A DNA stretch of 64,000 bases from Kiritimatiellia bacterium. GTDB taxonomy: Bacteria; Verrucomicrobiota; Kiritimatiellia; RFP12; DVOR01. The stretch is taken from contig JAFYWN010000007.1 of NCBI GenBank assembly GCA_017558005.1, forward strand, positions 74,364 through 138,363, given 5' to 3'. Position 1 is the first letter of the stretch. Every line of letters starts with the position of its first letter. Below the pieces are notes generated by a model. It was not told the DNA's origin and searched no databases. It saw only the letters and a list, made by a program, of their open reading frames with translations. Made by a program: the position numbers and the translations under genes. Shown here one piece after another: positions 20,352 through 63,789 of this stretch.

Positions 20352-21176
20352 TTACGATCTCCCTTCTTCCTTCTCCCCGTAACGCTTCATCAAGAAACGT
20401 TCGTAATTCTTCGGCTTCCGCTTGCTAATAAACGTGTATCCCTTTAGCATCCAAAGTCGACGCAACTTCAAATGCGCGAGGAAGAGTTTAGCGCGACTTT
20501 CAGGGAAGGCTCCTGGCACCTCTCGCATTGTGCCATCTAAATCAACGTGATTGTGAAAATAATGCTTATAAACAGACGAGAGGTCCGCAAGCAACAACAA
20601 TTTCCGGAACCACTTTGGATACCATTTTCTCAAATACACACCAGACTGAAAATCAATCAAGGCAGGCTGCTCACCAGGAAGCACCAACACATTTTTAGCA
20701 TTGCGCGTATCCAAATGTGTCACATTGCGACGGTGCATCGCACACACCAACCGCTCTAACTTTCGATAGTAAAAACCCGACAAAGGCGGCTTTCTTTCAG
20801 AAGCAGGTCGGCGACCACGAATAACGTCCATATTCCGTTGGTTGTAATCGCCCAAAGTAATCCCTTCCAAGAAATCCATTCCGAAGGCGTAGGCGTCGGC
20901 ACGAAACACATTTTGGGGTACGCCTGGCAATCCCTCCAAACACTTCATGAGCCGATACTCATGTCCCACCATCCATCTGCCCCATGTCCAACGAATCCAC
21001 CACGGGCTCTTTCGAAAATCCTTAATCACTACTTTTTTCTCAGGCGTTTCAAGCAAATAGACGCGTGCATTCCCTGCACGCCCTTTGCTCAGCATACGTA
21101 CGCCTGGAGCTTCCCAATCGTTTCGCGTTATAGGATTTGCCATCGCAATAAATCCTTTCTTGTGACTGAGGTTCAA
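20352..21176 (-). CDS. protein-kinase-like fold protein (Kdo/WaaP/RIO-like), atypical catalytic loop
   Basis: 274 aa with VVIKDF (beta3 Lys), HEYRLM (helix C Glu), HLDTRNAKNVLV (HxD...N loop) and LIDFQSG (DFG-like). The stop is 1 nt from the corA start. Confidence 0.55.
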   Translation of the reverse strand: MNLSHKKGFIAMANPITRNDWEAPGVRMLSKGRAGNARVYLLETPEKKVVIKDFRKSPWWIRWTWGRWMVGHEYRLMKCLEGLPGVPQNVFRADAYAFGMDFLEGITLGDYNQRNMDVIRGRRPASERKPPLSGFYYRKLERLVCAMHRRNVTHLDTRNAKNVLVLPGEQPALIDFQSGVYLRKWYPKWFRKLLLLADLSSVYKHYFHNHVDLDGTMREVPGAFPESRAKLFLAHLKLRRLWMLKGYTFISKRKPKNYERFLMKRYGEKEEGRS

Positions 21177-21387
21177 ATATCAAAACACCATCGTTGCACA
21201 TTATACCACATTTACCCAGTCCCTATATTTATTAAAGTATAAAAAATGAAGACATAAAATTCACCTCAATCGTGTTAGATGACATCGCAAAAGAGTGCCC
21301 AAATTCAACCCTGTTTCGAAGGCACTTCCCCCCTCAGTTTTTCAAGCCAAACACCCCAACCAACACATACAACATCTCTCACAAAAT

Positions 21388-21908
21388 CTCTTCTCTCCAC
21401 ATACACTAAAAGTGTAGCAAAACGGAGACAAGTAGTCAACTCTACCGACCCAGGTAAGCGAAAATTTCGCGATAAGTAGGCGAAATTTCCGCTTGAAAAT
21501 CGGCGACTTTGCTCACCCAATTTCGCTAACTTTGCCCAGGAATTTCGCTGATATTGCTCGCCAATTTCGCTGATATTGACCCGAAATTTCTTTAGCTTTC
21601 CCCAAAAAAGCTGCTACTTGTTGATAACTTTTCTACCACGTTAGGTCCACTTTTTCGCAAGGAAGCGACTGTAGCGGAGTTGATTTCGCCACTTTTTTGA
21701 CTTATCTCTTTATTTTTCAAGGAGTTATACAGTTTTAGAGAAAGTGAGCAAAAGTGGCGAAAATGGGCCGATCCGCCGACAAATTTTCAAAAAACTGCGT
21801 CGTAAAATGTGAATTGTTGATAACTTGTTGATAACTCAAAAAAGTTTTCAACAGGCGAAAAATCGCTAAAAAAGTGCAAAAAGTGACACACCTGCGCAGG
21901 GGATTTTT
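21388..21908 (+). repeat. copy A of a ~520-bp dispersed non-coding element (iterons + TGTTGATAAC boxes)
   Basis: Colinear, same-orientation alignment with 42061-42579. It includes a shared 5' block CCACATACACTAAAAGTGTAGCAAA and a 53-bp identical core (21813-21865). Confidence 0.85.
21458..21603 (+). repeat. iteron array A (AATTTCGCT-type repeats, 22-bp phase)
   Basis: Direct copies start at 21519, 21541, 21563 and 21585. Inverted copies lie upstream: GCGAAAaTTTCGC at 21458-21470 and GCGAAATTTCC from 21480. Confidence 0.8.
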
Positions 21909-21935
21909 GAAGAAAAAAGAAAATAAAAAGCTGTC

Positions 21936-21984
21936 AAAAAAATAAGGTCACACGATGCTTTGAATAGAGATTCATCATGTGACC
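21936..21984 (-). terminator. rho-independent terminator downstream of the DUF1287 gene
   Basis: Minus strand: GGTCACATGATG-loop-CATCGTGTGACC (11-12 bp stem with one mismatch) followed by TTATTTTTTTT, 10 nt after the stop at 21994. Confidence 0.65.
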
Positions 21985-21993
21985 GATGATGGA

Positions 21994-22572: not shown

Positions 22573-22649
22573 ACTTGAAACCTCGGCAATCGCCTACTCT
22601 ATGATTGGACCCATCCCTCTATTGTACCACCAAGTGCATCTGATTCCAA

Positions 22650-22729
22650 CACTTTGTCTGCTTTTAAATCTAATCTCCAGCACTTTGTCTGCTTTTAAAT
22701 CTGTTTTCTAACACTTTATCTGTTTTTTT
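22650..22729 (+). repeat. three direct repeats with exact 31-bp period in the DUF1287/rnr divergent intergenic region
   Basis: CACTTTGTCTGCTTTTAAATCT occurs at 22650-22671 and 22681-22702. A degenerate third copy, CACTTTATCTGTTTTTTT, lies at 22712-22729. Confidence 0.7.
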
Positions 22730-40091: not shown

Positions 40092-41321
40092 TTAGGGCGT
40101 TGTTCCAGAAACCGTGGATGCCGTCGCACCTTCAGCGGTAGAGGCTGTTGCTGCCTCACTCGCATCAGGCGGAGTGGGCGCTTCTTCTTCCGTATCGGGC
40201 AACAACAAGAGATTTTCATCTGCTTCTGCATAGCGGTCAAGCATGTAAGCATTGTCTGCTTCAAAGCGCAACCACACATCGTCGCCCCAAGTGATTCGAC
40301 GTTCATCAAGCGCATAACCGTAGTGTTGCTTCACCACCGCCACGCGCCAATCGTTGACGCGCACCCAATAACGCGTATGAGCGCCCAAATAAACCACGTC
40401 CTCCACCTTGCCCTGAAGCAAGTTGGTATTCGGCTTGATATTTCCAGGCTTATCCAAGGAAATCATGAACTTTTCAGGGCGAATGCTGATATGCACACTG
40501 CCGCCCTCACGGATCTTCTTATCGTTGTAAAGACGCAACGTCGGGAAATCCTCGATTTCCAAATCGCAGTAATCCCCTTCCACACGACGCACCGTGCCAG
40601 GGAAGAAGTTTGTATCGCCGATGAAGGCCGCCACAAAACTCGTCTTCGGCGCTTCATACAACTCCGGAGGCGTGCCAATCTGCTCCACATGCCCCCCACG
40701 CAATACCGCGATATGATCGCTGATACTCATTGCTTCCTGTTGGTCATGCGTCACGAAAAGGAAGGTAATTCCCACGTCATCATGCAACGCATCCAACTCA
40801 ATCAACATACGCTGACGCAATTTCAAGTCAAGCGCGGCGAGCGGTTCGTCCAAGAGCAACACCTTAGGACGGTTAATCAACGCACGAGCAATCGCCACAC
40901 GCTGACGTTGACCACCCGAAAGTTGCCCAGGCTTACGATCCTCAAAGCCTGCCAACTGCACCAAATCCAAATAACGCGGCACCGCTTCTGCGATTCGCTT
41001 CGCGTCCATTCCGGCCGTCTTCAAACCAAATGCCACATTTTCCCATACACTCATATGCGGGAACAATGCGTAGTTTTGGAAGACTGTACGCACTTCACGG
41101 CGATTCGGTGGCAAATCCGTAATATCCACGCCATCCAAAATCACACGCCCTGAATCAGGTCGCTCAAAACCACCGCAAATACGCAGCAAAGTCGTCTTGC
41201 CACATCCACTCGGGCCCAGCAAGGAGAAGACCTCTCCCGCTCCAATCGAAAGTGTCACATTATCCAAAACGGTATTATCGCCATACCGCTTAGTGATATT
41301 CTCAAAACGCAGGATTTCCAT
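40092..41321 (-). CDS. potA: spermidine/putrescine ABC transporter ATPase with acidic/Ala-Thr-rich C-terminal tail
   Basis: Walker A GPSGCGKTT, signature LSGGQRQR and Walker B LLLDEPLAALD. The ATG at 41321 (MEILRFENITKRYG) is preferred over the track start at 41396. Confidence 0.9.
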   Translation of the reverse strand: MEILRFENITKRYGDNTVLDNVTLSIGAGEVFSLLGPSGCGKTTLLRICGGFERPDSGRVILDGVDITDLPPNRREVRTVFQNYALFPHMSVWENVAFGLKTAGMDAKRIAEAVPRYLDLVQLAGFEDRKPGQLSGGQRQRVAIARALINRPKVLLLDEPLAALDLKLRQRMLIELDALHDDVGITFLFVTHDQQEAMSISDHIAVLRGGHVEQIGTPPELYEAPKTSFVAAFIGDTNFFPGTVRRVEGDYCDLEIEDFPTLRLYNDKKIREGGSVHISIRPEKFMISLDKPGNIKPNTNLLQGKVEDVVYLGAHTRYWVRVNDWRVAVVKQHYGYALDERRITWGDDVWLRFEADNAYMLDRYAEADENLLLLPDTEEEAPTPPDASEAATASTAEGATASTVSGTTP

Positions 41322-41793
41322 CGTCCGGAACTCGCTCCTGTTAGAAATGAAAACGCACCCGTAATAAAGAGACCATCTCCCTATTACAAAGCACAAATCA
41401 TAACATAATTAGCCCCCTAAAAACGAATAAAATCGCATCTCCATAAATAAAAATATAAATAAAAAATTACCCCGCCCTTTTTTCACCCATTTTTTCAACC
41501 CTAAAACACCCTCAAAACCCCGTTAAATAGGCACTTTTAACAAACTCCATCTTCCGCCCAAGAGTTACCTTTTATTTTTCAAAAAATTACACATGCTCAG
41601 GCCAACCGCAACCGATTCATTTAGAATCCCTCTATTTGAGCCCCTCGCGCTACAAATTTTCTCGTTAAGTAACTCCCCACCATCCCACACATGGACTATG
41701 CCCACGAGCGCACCACGCCCCCCAGAAGGAATTCTCACTCACCCCACACATGGCATATGCCAACAAGAGTAGATCGCTCACAAAAAAGAGACT

Positions 41794-41995
41794 TCCTTAT
41801 CCCATGCGCAGCATGTGTCAGTCGGAGTACCACACATCGCAGAAAGACACGTATTCCACCCACACACTACTTGTGTCAGCAAACACACCACACACCATAC
41901 ACCACAGAAGGAAACCACCCTCCACCCCACGCGCTGCTTGTCACCATGCACCCCTAGCCTCTCCTTATCCCATGCGCAGCATGTGTCAGTCGGAG
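41794..41995 (+). repeat. perfect 34-bp direct repeat pair in a G-depleted tract
   Basis: TCCTTATCCCATGCGCAGCATGTGTCAGTCGGAG occurs at 41794-41827 and 41962-41995. Confidence 0.85.
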
Positions 41996-42060
41996 CGCGT
42001 GCGCTCCGCCCGTTCATCGGCTTTAGCCGTGGAAAAGCTTTTCAAAAAAATAATCACAGC

Positions 42061-42579
42061 CTCTTCTCCCCACATACACTAAAAGTGTAGCAAAGTCTTT
42101 CACGATTGTCAAATCGTCATTTAAGGACCCTCTAAAATATCGCAAAAAAGGCTCAAAATTTACCCTTCAAAACTAGCGAAATTGCAACTCAATTTCGCTA
42201 GTTTTGCTCCCCCAATTTCGCCAGTATTGGGATCCAATTTCGCTAATATTGACCCAAATTTTCTAGAGACCTCCCCCAAAAACGGGCAAATTGTTGATAA
42301 CTTTTCCTCCCCTCATGACCCATTTTTTCGAAAGGAAGCCGCTGTAGCGGAGTTGATTAACCCAATTTTTTGCACTATCTCTTTTTCCCTAAAGAAGTTA
42401 TGCATTTTAAGCCACCGTTTGATTTTCGCCTTAAAAATCGCCACCACACCGAATTTTTTCAGAAAACTGCGTCGAAAAACTTGCATTGTTGATAACTTGT
42501 TGATAACTCAAAAAAGTTTTCAACAGGCGAAAAATCGTTAAAATTTTCGAAAAAATGAACTTTTCGCGCAGGCGATTTT
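42061..42579 (+). repeat. copy B of the ~520-bp dispersed non-coding element
   Basis: Colinear with 21388-21908. The identical 53-bp core lies at 42485-42537. Confidence 0.85.
42168..42277 (+). repeat. iteron array B, including a 17-bp perfect inverted repeat
   Basis: The inverted repeat is CAAAACTAGCGAAATTG-caact-CAATTTCGCTAGTTTTG (42168-42206). Direct AATTTCGC-type copies start at 42191, 42214, 42236 and 42257. Confidence 0.8.
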
Positions 42580-42743
42580 GGCGCAAAAAACAATTTAGCG
42601 ACAAACACTTTACAAGGAAAATTTCCCCACGGATTTTCACAAACCTGCAAGCCGATAGAGGAACAATCCTCACAGAAGAAGGTACCCCACGACATTAAAG
42701 AAACTGTAAGCGCATAGAGAAAAACAAGTCATTTCACACCCTC

Positions 42744-42838
42744 ACGAAGGCACGTAGCGCACGCAAATAACGTCCATCAATAGCCTACGAATTTCCTGCA
42801 GTTGCAGTCTTACGAAGGTATGTAGTGCACGCAAATAA
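42744..42838 (+). repeat. 27-nt direct repeat pair (24/27 identical)
   Basis: ACGAAGGCACGTAGCGCACGCAAATAA (42744-42770) versus ACGAAGGTATGTAGTGCACGCAAATAA (42812-42838). All three differences are C/T. Confidence 0.75.
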
Positions 42839-42968
42839 AGCGTACATTATTAAGTATTGAAGGGAATTAAGAGAGGAATTCTCCTCCGTTTTAGCTCTCC
42901 TGCCCCTGTCTATTCGCATTTTACCCAATAAATTTTCAATTTATCACCGATTTATTTAGTCTGACGTA

Positions 42969-42998
42969 TTGACTTCTACCCCTTGAAAATGGGATAAT
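42969..42998 (+). promoter_or_regulatory. sigma70-type promoter candidate for the carboxyltransferase gene
   Basis: TTGACT (42969-42974), an 18-nt spacer, then TGGGATAAT with GATAAT at 42993-42998, about 57 nt upstream of the ATG at 43055. Confidence 0.4.
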
Positions 42999-43054
42999 AG
43001 TAATGTTTTAGACTTTAATTGTGCCAACACGATTTAGCCGAAAGGAAACTGTAT

Positions 43055-44914
43055 ATGGCCAAGACCGAAAAGAAGACCGTCCGTTTCGTCGATACGACGT
43101 TACGCGATGCCCACCAGTCTTTGTGGGCGACACGTATGCGCACCAAGGATATCCTTGGCATTCTGGAAGCCGTGGATGACGCTGGTTTCTACGCGATTGA
43201 ATGTTGGGGCGGTGCGACGTTCGACGTCTGCATGCGCTTCCTCCGTGAAGATCCGTGGGAACGCCTGCGCCAGATTAAGGCGGTTTGCAAGAAGACTCCG
43301 CTCCAGATGTTGTTGCGTGGTCAGAACTGCTTGGGTTACAAGCACTACCCGGATGACGTGTTGGATCGTTGCGTGGCAAAGATGTGCGAAAACGGCATGG
43401 ACATCTTCCGTTGCTTCGACGCACTCAATGACGTGCGCAACCTCGAAGCTGCTATCAAGGCAGTGAAGAAGTACGGCGGTCACGCTCAGGGTACGATTTG
43501 CTACACCTTCTCTCCCGTGCACACCGTGGCCAACTATGTGAAGTTCGCCAAGGAACAGGTGCAGCTCGGCATTGACTCGCTCGCCATTAAGGATATGGCT
43601 GGCATCTTGACGCCCTCTGCAGCCCGCGAACTCGTGACCGGCCTCAAGAAGGCGCTCCCCGACCTCCCCATCGAAGTGCACTCGCACATGACCTCTGGCA
43701 TGGCCCCTGCAATGTACATGGCCGCAGTGGAAGCAGGCGCTGGCGCAATTGACTGCGCTGTTGCAACGCTCTCTGGCTTCTCCTCCCAGCCTGCACACGG
43801 CACGATGCACGCCATCTTCGAAGGTCTCGGCTATGAAACCGGCATCAAGACCGACCGCATCACCGAAATCGACAACTACTTCAAGGCCCTCAAGCCCGAA
43901 CGTGCGCTCCAGGCAAATGCTGATGCAGAAGCCGTGGACGTGCAGGTGCTTCTCCACCACATCCCTGGTGGCATGATCTCCAACACCCGTAGCCAGTTGG
44001 CTCAGCAGGATGCTTTGGATCGCTTGCCCGAAGTGTTGGAAGAACTTCCTCGCGTGCGTAAGGATATGGGTTATCCTCCCTTGGTCACGCCGACCTCCCA
44101 GATCATGGGTGTGCAGGCTGTGCTCAACGTGCTCGGCGGTGAACGCTATGGCATGGTTTCCAACGAAACCAAGCAGTACGTCAAGGGTTACTACGGTCGT
44201 AGCCCCGCTCCCGTGGACAAGGCTCTCGAAAAGAAGATTCTCGCTGGCGAAAAGAAGATCACCTGCCGTCCGGCAGACTTGCTCGAACCTGGCTTGCCTC
44301 AGGCTGCTAAGGAACTCGATCCCAAGTTGATCCAGACCGAAGAAGACATCCTCTCCTACTGCATGTTCCCCGCTGTGGCGCTCGACTACTTCCAGTGGCG
44401 TGCTAAGCCCGAAGGCGAACGTGACCCGATTCCTGCTGACTCCGAAATGACTATCGCGAAGGCCGCTGCTAAGGCTGAAGAAGCCAAGGCCGCTCCCGCT
44501 CCTGCACCTTTGGGCGCAGATGATGCGAAGTTCGCTGTCATTGGTAAGCAGTTCGTGGCCCTCTTCGGCTCCCTCGGTGGCAACATCAAGGTGGACGCCT
44601 CTGCACTCGCAGCCGTCCCGACGACCGATGCCGCAGCCGCACCCGCCGCAGAAGCAGCTCCTGCCGCAGCCGCCGCACCCAAGAAGACCTTGAATGCTAC
44701 GCTCACCGGCACCTTCTACCGTTCTGACGCCCCCGGCAAGCCGAACATGGTGGAAGAAGGCGCTAGCGTGAAGGCTGGCGACCCGGTCTGCGTGTTGGAA
44801 GCTATGAAGCTCTTCAACCCGGTGAAGGCACCTGAAAACTGCAAGATTATCCGCTTCCTCGTGCAGCCCGGCGAGAACGTCTCCAAGGGCAGCCCGATTG
44901 CAGAAATCGAATAA
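43055..44914 (+). CDS. biotin-dependent carboxyltransferase subunit with C-terminal biotinyl domain (oxaloacetate decarboxylase alpha / pyruvate carboxylase subunit B type)
   Basis: N-terminal HMGL-like domain (VRFVDTTLRDAHQSLWATRM), an Ala/Pro-rich linker, and a biotinyl domain with VLEAMKLFN. The ATG at 43055 has SD AAAGGAAA upstream and is preferred over 43019. Confidence 0.88.
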   Translation: MAKTEKKTVRFVDTTLRDAHQSLWATRMRTKDILGILEAVDDAGFYAIECWGGATFDVCMRFLREDPWERLRQIKAVCKKTPLQMLLRGQNCLGYKHYPDDVLDRCVAKMCENGMDIFRCFDALNDVRNLEAAIKAVKKYGGHAQGTICYTFSPVHTVANYVKFAKEQVQLGIDSLAIKDMAGILTPSAARELVTGLKKALPDLPIEVHSHMTSGMAPAMYMAAVEAGAGAIDCAVATLSGFSSQPAHGTMHAIFEGLGYETGIKTDRITEIDNYFKALKPERALQANADAEAVDVQVLLHHIPGGMISNTRSQLAQQDALDRLPEVLEELPRVRKDMGYPPLVTPTSQIMGVQAVLNVLGGERYGMVSNETKQYVKGYYGRSPAPVDKALEKKILAGEKKITCRPADLLEPGLPQAAKELDPKLIQTEEDILSYCMFPAVALDYFQWRAKPEGERDPIPADSEMTIAKAAAKAEEAKAAPAPAPLGADDAKFAVIGKQFVALFGSLGGNIKVDASALAAVPTTDAAAAPAAEAAPAAAAAPKKTLNATLTGTFYRSDAPGKPNMVEEGASVKAGDPVCVLEAMKLFNPVKAPENCKIIRFLVQPGENVSKGSPIAEIE

Positions 44915-62744: not shown

Positions 62745-63020
62745 TCAATTCAGCGAAATAGTGTAACTCTTTTCACCATATTCTGTTCTCATTTGATAAT
62801 TTACATTACACGTATCCCCGTCGCTTTTGTATGTAACAAGACATTCTTCATAATCATTTCCGCGCAATGCTAATTGACTCCGCGATCGACTATTCCCACC
62901 CTTCTTATAAACGGAAAGCTCTTCTAATTTTTTAGGATAACGCCCATACTCTTTTTTAAACTCTTTTATTTCACTTCTTCAATACTTTGTACTATATTTG
63001 CCCAGCTGTAAATTATTCAT
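62745..63020 (-). pseudogene. possible decayed pseudopilin-like gene with an in-frame TGA
   Basis: Own translation gives MNNLQLGKYSTKY*RSEIKEFKKEYGRYPKKLEELSVYKKGG...YTISLN*. The stop lies at 62979-62981. The EFKKEYGRYPKKLEEL segment resembles the conserved pseudopilin segment, and no hydrophobic N-terminus is present. Weak call. Confidence 0.25.
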
Positions 63021-63444
63021 TTACAATAACTTATCTTGAATATTTTATGGCGGGCAATTTTAAGCTTAAAATCAGTACAATTTGTACTATCCGTGCAAAA
63101 TTTAAACAGTACAAAATATTTCCGTGCAAATTATTTTAAGGGGAAATTTCCTCTCGGGAAGAAATCTTAAATAGTACAATTTTTGGTCGGGGACTTTTTA
63201 GACCTGTTTAGAAAATTCTAGAAAATAGTACGAAGGGCCGAAGAAGTGAAACCATTGGAATTGAAACTTAAAACCAATGGTATTAATTTTCCGTGTTTTT
63301 GTACTAATTTTCTAGAAATGCAATAGTACAAAATGCATTGCCCCATACTAATTTTTTGGAATGCAATTTAGCCCCAAAATAAGCAATTGGAATGCAACGG
63401 CATACGGGGAAAATGCATCGCGGGTGTCATAGTACATTTACTGA

Positions 63445-63789
63445 AAAATTGATAACTTAAGACGTAAAACAGTGCATCGAGCCTTACGATCAATTGTGAA
63501 AGAAACCTCCGAGGAAGGTATTACAATTACCCATATTTTAACCGATAATGGAACAGAGTTCACGGACACCAAGAAGGTTGAGAAAATTACACGAGCAATG
63601 CTCTTTTATACACATGCATGTGCAGCCTGGGAAAAGGGATACATTGAGAACTCTAATCACCTTATCCGTCGCTTCTATCCAAAAACCACCGACTTTTCTC
63701 GATTAATAGCCAAAGACATCGCGATTCTCCAGTATAAACTCGCACATTACCCACGTTCATCACAACTCAAACAAAAAGGTGCTGCATGA
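63445..63789 (+). pseudogene. IS30-family transposase, C-terminal fragment only
   Basis: The open frame contains ILTDNGTEF (second catalytic Asp region) and WEKGYIENSNHLIRRFYPKTTDF (the IS30 E...N.N.L.R...PK motif). The N-terminal two thirds, including the HTH and first Asp, are absent, and no inverted repeats were identified. Confidence 0.6.

Follow-up and report, generated by a model that had tools for sequence, protein, structure and literature searches.

A 524-bp element located in the intergenic region between potA and oadA, within a 64,000-nucleotide stretch of DNA from an uncultured gut bacterium (contig JAFYWN010000007.1, positions 74,364–138,363; the whole stretch is termed the window below), raises the question of what role, if any, it serves at this locus. 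The element (copy B) has a second copy in the window (copy A). A first-pass annotation of this DNA placed both in long intergenic gaps, which is confirmed: 817 bp for copy A (21177–21993) and 1658 bp for copy B (41397–43054). The two copies align with about 80% identity across some 520 bp (offset 20672–20673). The annotation interpreted the two as paralogous cis-acting modules that are bound by the same factor. A cis-acting character is supported by the present analysis. The notion of two modules is too narrow, as the element belongs to a dispersed family with at least 45 full or partial copies, and a single factor is too simple, as at least three classes of site are present: a sigma-70 promoter, DnaA boxes and iterons. 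The interpretation preferred here is that copy B is a member of a family of non-coding intergenic repeats that may serve as a reusable promoter/regulatory cassette; on the evidence of sequence we give this about an even chance of being correct.

Extent and distribution of the element family

An element-family profile (nhmmer, cut-off E < 1e-40) was run on the fetched DNA of two closely related uncultured bacteria of the PVC (Planctomycetes–Verrucomicrobia–Chlamydiae) group. It shows at least 45 full or partial copies of the ~524-bp element in the two genomes, with at least 20 per genome (a 46th row of the profile listing is the second half of one split copy and is not counted). All copy numbers of the family are lower bounds.

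The first pattern used with the genome collection, which holds one genome per species, was the 22-mer of the tandem DnaA box. This was too general, and the 22-mer was found in many phyla among the matches listed. At least about 20 of the loci come from one metagenome-assembled genome (MAG), JAZUPT01 (labelled Candidatus Spyradenecus sp., Lentisphaerota, and referred to as the sister MAG), and these loci contain the entire 520-bp unit with 72%–83% identity. A more specific 35-mer yielded 23 loci in the metagenome assembly JAEIGA01. The window is 97%–99% identical to two JAEIGA01 stretches, thus the species from which the window comes has at least 23 copies of the element. In the protein collection, the named OadA homologues that come closest carry the label Kiritimatiellia, and the organism is therefore called a PVC-group bacterium here.

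Conservation in the family was determined from an alignment of 33 full copies, i.e. copy B and 32 others, which is nearly gap-free. The median pairwise identity is 74% (range 65%–92%). Between copies A and B the identity is 97% in a 34-nt stretch of the promoter end and 88% in 103 nt of the 3′ block; their neighbours are unrelated. The 3′ boundary of the element is fuzzy, with variable tails, and relatives that are free of the element share no alignable upstream DNA. Several copies are found at contig ends, as is usual for repeats. Outside of the boxes, the lowest variability is in a 35-nt block (Table 1), where a consensus fold of the 33 copies shows no compensatory pairing.

The genes beside the element are unrelated housekeeping genes, e.g. 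those for TyrRS, PFK, fumarase, isocitrate/isopropylmalate dehydrogenase, GrpE, guanylate kinase, PotA, GAPDH, citrate synthase, a release factor and OadA. Among about 50 element neighbours there is no transposase, integrase or Rep. Elements show a strong bias toward divergent intergenic regions: of the 17 for which both neighbours can be seen, 12 are flanked by divergent genes, compared to 12 of 157 for the remaining intergenic regions of these loci. The predicted promoter of the element is directed toward a gene start in about 14 of these 17 (orientations read from the same output).

Predicted sites within the element

The CCACATACAC end of the element is a predicted near-consensus, extended −10 sigma-70 promoter that is situated in the 5′ terminal 50 bp and directed outward. 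Both window copies display TTGAC(A/T)-17 nt-TACACT with a preceding TG, and TTGAC[A/G/T]-N17-TACACT is present in all 33 full copies with a spacer that is invariably 17 nt. The hexamers are kept across copies and the spacer sequence varies; this is the signature of a promoter. In each of the two gaps it is the sole consensus-like minus-strand promoter upstream of the minus-strand operon. For copy B transcription is predicted to start at ~42077 (minus strand) and to proceed toward potA, whose start codon is at 41396. It had been noted that the CCACATACAC end faces the start of a minus-strand operon, potABCD for copy B. This is borne out, and the end faces the operon because the predicted promoter is located there. 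A small inverted repeat overlaps the promoter, its right arm being the −10 hexamer; possibly it is an operator, or else no more than the promoter and start region.

The region between the copy B promoter and the potA start is itself repeat-filled at positions 41600–42000, and is G-rich on the transcribed (minus) strand. It includes two perfect 34-bp direct repeats (41794–41827 and 41962–41995) and three CCCACACATGG-type motifs, and would belong to the ~680-nt leader of potA. The 300-nt flanks of all copies are G-rich when read outward: the mean GC skew is −0.157 for the 5′ flank (negative in 30 of 33) and +0.131 for the 3′ flank (positive in 28 of 37), a bias that is greater than the ordinary coding-strand effect in the window.

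Ninety to 180 bp behind the promoter is an array of four iteron sites, one inverted and three direct, with centres 22–23 bp apart. The iteron unit is ~17 bp long, with CAAT...ATTG ends and an asymmetric centre. The spacing of the centres places the iterons on one face of the helix and suits cooperative binding of a dimer. Thus the earlier proposal of dimer plus cooperative array binding is compatible with the arrangement of palindromic and direct sites, the binding itself being a prediction. The perfect 17-bp inverted repeat at 42168–42206 is confirmed, with a 5-nt loop. The iteron starts needed correction: three iterons are real, each beginning 1 bp before the position first given, and the fourth (~42256) is a degenerate half-site.

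The palindrome of copy B, folded as single-stranded DNA, gives −18.1 kcal/mol (z = −11.4), and by our estimate the chance expectation of such palindromes in 64 kb is ~7e-5. The palindrome is not universal; at least 10 paired positions are kept in 19 of the 33 copies, and in copy A, which carries a “type 2” module, it has decayed (fold z = −0.7). Three or four central bases of the iteron vary between copies, and both arms of the palindrome change together. In the 19 type-1 copies there are 20 doubly changed cells vs. 7.8 in shuffles, with none of 500 shuffles as high, and the covariation score is 0.170 vs. 0.02–0.08 for slid partners. This covariation is compatible with selection for a hairpin or cruciform. 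Concerted evolution may also explain it, because the direct iterons within a copy are homogenized as well.

Iterons and DnaA boxes were counted in 378 kb of family loci. Nearly all iteron cores (111 of 116) are inside elements. The five stray core matches are isolated, all are within genes and none is arrayed, so that they offer no lead in these loci to the gene of an iteron-binding protein. A recurrent family that could encode such a protein was not found among the element neighbours.

The TTGTTGATAAC boxes, of which GTTATCAACAA is the reverse complement, are DnaA boxes by consensus. The core, TTATCAACA, is one base off the E. coli consensus TT(A/T)TNCACA, and is listed in the T5 literature as a variant DnaA box. 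The boxes first described are all present: the single box at 42291–42301, the tandem pair at 42486–42507 and the convergent box at 42517–42525. In the 378-kb sample 210 boxes are present, 178 of them in elements, 26 in the dnaA region and 6 elsewhere. Eight of the nine boxes in the window are within the two elements (0.76 expected). The apparent conservation of the tandem box is inflated by ascertainment, as the 22-mer tandem box served as a search pattern.

The boxes are also found beside dnaA. About 28 of the 68 listed non-family loci with a tandem box have a GxxGxGKTHL Walker A motif, typical of DnaA, within ~1 kb, and DnaA was confirmed by Pfam beside boxes in two loci, the Poribacteria locus and the sister MAG. 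In the sister MAG, dnaA is at L029:5372–6829 on the minus strand (Pfam 8e-55); one GTTATCAACAA cluster is directly upstream of it and two are nearby, and one cluster is beside a 90% AT stretch. The clusters, L041:6971–7261, L029:2134–2623 and L029:6817–7072, are on contig JAZUPT010000043 at 142.9–151.1 kb, which is probably the origin region of this genome. In its layout, a tandem pair and a convergent box at a distance of 18 bp, the element is similar to a sub-module of the origin-like cluster.

The exact tandem sequence GTTATCAACAAGTTATCAACAA adjoins dnaA in many Poribacteria, and further instances come from Bdellovibrionota, TM6/Babeliales, Planctomycetota and others. As far as can be read from the sequences, pairs of TTATCAACA-type DnaA boxes with an 11-bp phase may thus be widespread at origins.

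Table 1. Positions in the window of the two element copies, of the sites predicted in copy B and of features nearby (a dot denotes no strand given)
Feature	Position	Strand	Remarks
Element copy B, whole family unit, 524 bp	42061–42584	+	nhmmer family profile, 42062–42583, E = 2e-150
Element copy A	21388–21912	+	Promoter 21439–21411 (−); iterons 21518, 21540, 21562; DnaA boxes 21619, 21815, 21826 (−), 21845 (+)
Predicted outward sigma-70 promoter, TTGACA-17-TGcTACACT	42084–42112	−	Consensus scan 10/12 with TG; −35 TTGACA 42112–42107, 17-nt spacer, extended −10 TGcTACACT 42092–42084
Small inverted repeat TACACT-aaa-AGTGTA	42075–42089	.	Arms conserved, three central bases free; DNA fold z = −3.7
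Exchangeable central segment (conversion tract)	42125–42455	.	330 bp ~75% identical to a strain whose flanking genes are 98.8% identical; element ends near-identical
Perfect 17-bp palindrome CAAAACTAGCGAAATTG / CAATTTCGCTAGTTTTG, inverted iteron and iteron 1	42168–42184 / 42190–42206	.	5-nt loop
Three direct 17-bp iterons CAATTTCGCnnnTwTTG, core CAATTTCGC	42190, 42213, 42235 (to 42251)	+	23 and 22 bp phase
Degenerate fourth repeat AAATTTTCTAGAG (family consensus GAATTTCTTTAG)	42256–42270	+	Family-conserved; only AATTTC in common with iterons
Single DnaA box GTTATCAACAA	42291–42301	−	Invariant in all copies; same extended box as in the dnaA-locus clusters of the lineage
Highly conserved block TTTTTCGaAAGGAAGCCGCTGTAGCGGAGTTGATT	42324–42358	.	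Lowest variability outside boxes, 0.05–0.06 non-consensus
Tandem DnaA boxes GTTATCAACAA-GTTATCAACAA	42486–42507 (starts 42486, 42497)	−	11-bp period; 22-mer recurs beside Poribacteria dnaA (L040)
Convergent DnaA box TTTTCAACA	42517–42525	+	Overlaps −35 of weak rightward promoter-like site 42517–42544
119-aa open reading frame, not a gene	42182–42541	+	Sporadic counterparts, no codon periodicity
Terminator-like hairpin downstream of copy B	42873–42892	+	Would end any rightward element transcript
Sigma-70-like promoter in front of oadA	42969–42998	.	After hairpin 42873–42892

Exchange between copies and alternative explanations

Compared to a strain with 98.8% identical flanking genes, the central segment of copy B (Table 1) is divergent and is placed between near-identical element ends; this points to a conversion tract from another copy, in which both palindrome arms were changed together. 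At orthologous loci of two species the element identity is 74%–94% vs. 87%–97% for the flanks. In one strain, L112:4664–5183 is a chimera that takes its 3′ part from copy A and its 5′ part from the copy in front of the ExbB operon, with the junction near 21494. The left neighbour of the chimera differs accordingly; the rearrangement came about by recombination between two copies. Judged from these sequence comparisons, element copies exchange internal segments and mediate rearrangements.

In the mechanism proposed for the cassette, the promoter would fire outward into the adjacent operon, potABCD in the case of copy B. A dimeric DNA-binding protein would occupy the iteron array cooperatively and DnaA would occupy the boxes, and the two together may modulate transcription from the cassette. 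Taken together, the dozens of copies would also provide a large number of DnaA sites on the chromosome, a pool like that of datA or of the DnaA-box clusters of Bacillus. Recombination and gene conversion between copies would maintain and shuffle the family, and the copies would therefore be breakpoints of genome rearrangement. A more far-reaching proposal is that the family is a genome-wide, DnaA-centred control in which dozens of origin-like modules, each combining DnaA boxes, iterons and a consensus promoter, precede central-metabolism and housekeeping operons; expression would be coupled to the state of replication initiation, and free DnaA would be buffered by the repeats and not by a few unique loci. 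This is considered unlikely. In a sharper version of DnaA-centred control, some copies can fire as conditional secondary origins.

Several observations weigh against the cassette. The promoter and the DnaA boxes are consensus-based calls, and the orientation statistics are from conservative but crude open reading frame calls. The promoter is directed toward a gene 3′ end or is otherwise poorly placed in 3 of 17 copies, and the 5′ leader of potA from the predicted start would be ~680 nt, which is unusually long. At 200–450 bp behind the outward promoter, the DnaA boxes are too distant to control it directly in a simple way; a possible target instead is the weak rightward promoter, but this is seen in only 10 of the 33 copies. 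There are no terminal inverted repeats (local alignment of the element ends scores 6 vs. a shuffled mean of 6.8), and no mobility gene is detectable beside the copies. Relatives whose OadA is 70%–90% identical do not have the element upstream of oadA, and the upstream genes differ; the element is therefore dispensable there. The first-pass annotation had named as a refutation that the element is absent or unconserved at orthologous loci and is simply a remnant of a recent segmental duplication. The absence is found in part, at oadA in these relatives, but the remnant interpretation is wrong. A comparison of empty sites at oadA yielded no insertion boundaries, as the upstream DNA of the relatives is unalignable and the left neighbours are different.

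That the element is a selfish, non-autonomous mobile element, similar to a large miniature inverted-repeat transposable element (MITE), is rather unlikely, although this would account for the dozens of dispersed copies with 65%–92% identity, the copies at contig ends, the orthologous loci of relatives without the element and the patchy replacement at orthologous sites. The promoter, boxes and repeats would then be remnants of the propagation of the element itself or would serve it, without benefit to the host, and its positions would be tolerated insertions. The absence of terminal inverted repeats argues against a MITE-like element, as does that of a transposase, integrase or Rep beside ~50 neighbours. 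No relatives of the element were found among 72,556 plasmids and 50,697 phages (blastn, distant mode) or in two pattern scans of viral contigs. In addition, the promoter is intact in 33 of 33 copies despite a median divergence of 26%, and the boxes and several blocks are near-invariant, which points to selection on function. The strong bias toward divergent intergenic regions also runs counter to insertion between convergent genes, the usual safe haven. An iteron-type origin module, plasmid-derived or a secondary chromosomal origin, with Rep supplied in trans, DnaA on the boxes and outward transcription aiding the opening, is improbable. The layout is like that of iteron-plasmid origins (phased iterons and an inverted one, DnaA boxes with a tandem pair among them, a promoter that fires away), and copies are located where gene orientation diverges. 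At least three direct repeats of 17–22 bp at ~22 bp phase, as expected of an oriV, are present together with the inverted copy (42168–42184), and the four DnaA boxes within 235 bp form a box cluster as expected of an oriC. However, every 2-kb bin between 1 and 64000 has a negative GC skew, with no sign change at either copy; thus neither copy behaves as a long-term origin. The highest AT content per 50 nt in the element is 0.76–0.78, compared to 0.90 beside the origin-like box cluster of the lineage, so that an AT-rich unwinding element is lacking, and no rep gene adjoins any copy (~50 neighbours). An oriC is a single locus, usually beside dnaA or dnaN, whereas the element is present in dozens of copies per chromosome beside unrelated genes, and the dnaA region of the sister genome is elsewhere; nor was a plasmid, phage or viral relative found in the collections named above. 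An active origin was rejected on the lack of a skew flip, of an AT-rich unwinding stretch and of a nearby rep gene.

A further possibility, quite unlikely in our judgment, is that the element is the control region of a non-coding RNA gene. A weak rightward promoter, with the convergent DnaA box as its −35, would be followed by a purine-rich tail and a hairpin terminator; the transcript would extend from ~42551 to 42892 for copy B, and in most others across a GGGAT-type 9-mer array and then hairpins like those of repetitive extragenic palindromic (REP) sequences. Consistent with this are the promoter-like site and the terminator-like hairpin (Table 1), tails that are rich in GGA and AAGG motifs, the G-rich element-strand 3′ flanks (28 of 37 copies), and the triple-hairpin modules, 16 of 23 of which follow an element on its own strand at no more than 400 nt in the 3′ direction, with none so placed on the opposite strand. 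Against it, the rightward promoter passes the scan in only 10 of 33 copies and its −10 region is unconserved, the tails are non-homologous between subfamilies, and copy A is tail-free and abuts a gene end. Rfam gave nothing meaningful (gathering score on the window and six family loci; E ≤ 1 on 41300–43100). Folded as a consensus, the 33 copies give a weak structure (−23 kcal/mol over 560 columns), with compensatory change solely in the palindrome stem, and a structured RNA over the whole unit was rejected on the weak fold and the lack of an Rfam match. It is hardly credible that the 119-aa open reading frame at 42182–42541 encodes a protein, although in about 20 of the 33 copies one frame stays open across 74 codons. 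About 13 copies have stops or frameshifts and the start codon is not conserved. There is no Pfam family, and in a search space of 5.8 billion predicted proteins the only counterparts are 7 sporadic, length-variable open reading frame calls (88–208 aa). The frame also crosses the iterons and DnaA boxes. Conserved homologues with coding-type substitutions, which had been named as a refutation of the non-coding view, were not found; variability by codon position is flat (0.168, 0.163, 0.190). The open reading frame was rejected as a gene on the results with Pfam, homologue search, frame conservation and codon periodicity, and its earlier description as present but non-coding is borne out.

On the rightward side of copy B, positions 42669–42838 contain three or four copies of a 30-nt repeat, CTCACGAAGGCACGTAGCGCACGCAAATAA, with a spacing of 68–72 bp, followed by the hairpin and the oadA-side promoter. 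Most copies in the sister MAG (L031, L015, L066, L095, L106 and others) display an array of a 9-nt unit, GGGATAAAA / GCGATAGAA, 3′ of the core. These arrays are 100–300 nt 3′ of the core and are followed by a REP-like triple hairpin that ends in GCATCCTGACGGATGCTTTT; the window copies are without this tail.

Two other repeats were noted in the window. Positions 62950–63460 are an unrelated multi-copy repeat, found several times in L020 and once in L036; it appears to adjoin a transposase fragment (reading frame by eye). The DUF1287–RNase R intergenic region has a tandem 31-bp repeat that is 87% identical (22645–22706).

Comparison with known systems

Literature searches found no described repeat family that combines a promoter, iterons and DnaA boxes. 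Promoters are regarded as commonly reused apart from their genes, but documentation is poor for anything longer than short stretches, and as a cassette the element would be a clear large-scale case: 524 bp with an intact consensus promoter before dozens of housekeeping operons, functional-looking despite ~26% divergence. The family also holds most of the strong DnaA boxes of the genome, and if DnaA binds to these, it would represent a new way of organizing initiator titration or replication-coupled transcription. The family accounts for the points at which assemblies and synteny break in these uncultured PVC-group genomes, and supplies a strong (predicted) promoter and a defined DnaA-box variant for experimental use in the lineage.

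Iteron plasmid origins (pSC101, P1, F, RK2) have three to four direct ~17-bp repeats at ~22 bp phase, an inverted copy, and tandem DnaA boxes. The element is similar in its phased direct repeats, inverted copy and DnaA boxes with a tandem pair, but is without a cis rep gene, an AT-rich unwinding element or a GC-skew signature, and is chromosomal and multi-copy. The OR/OL regions of lambda have several tandem 17-bp pseudo-symmetric sites, 22–24 bp centre-to-centre, between divergent transcription units. The iterons of the element are similar in size and spacing, which would suit cooperative dimers; unlike the lambda sites they are 90–180 bp behind the promoter instead of overlapping it, and a neighbouring repressor gene is absent.

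Putative mobile promoters and promoter-bearing repeats such as Correia and ERICs have been described as families defined on 50–100 nt, mostly pairs (Nijveen et al. 2012, PMC3575422). The element is like the putative mobile promoters (PMC3575422) in that very similar non-coding DNA with a predicted promoter is present upstream of unrelated genes in one genome, with no mobility gene evident; identity is at least 80% over at least 50 nt upstream of non-homologous genes, as these are defined. It differs in that it is larger (524 bp), composite, and present in at least 20 copies per genome, and in that a group of DnaA boxes and an array of phased iterons are part of the unit. Terminal inverted repeats, which Correia elements have, are absent from it.

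Clusters of DnaA boxes outside of origins are known from E. coli, i.e. datA and DARS (PMC4585315), and from Bacillus subtilis, where eight intergenic regions stably bind DnaA (PMC2533591). Some of these regulate adjacent promoters, and collectively they titrate or modulate DnaA (PMC4585315, PMC2533591). Like these loci, the element is an intergenic group of several high-affinity-type DnaA boxes away from the origin, and its boxes are dense, as in datA. The datA, DARS and Bacillus loci are few, unique and mutually non-homologous, whereas the cluster of the element is part of a repeated 524-bp unit with dozens of copies, and its boxes are tied to a consensus promoter and a second set of sites.

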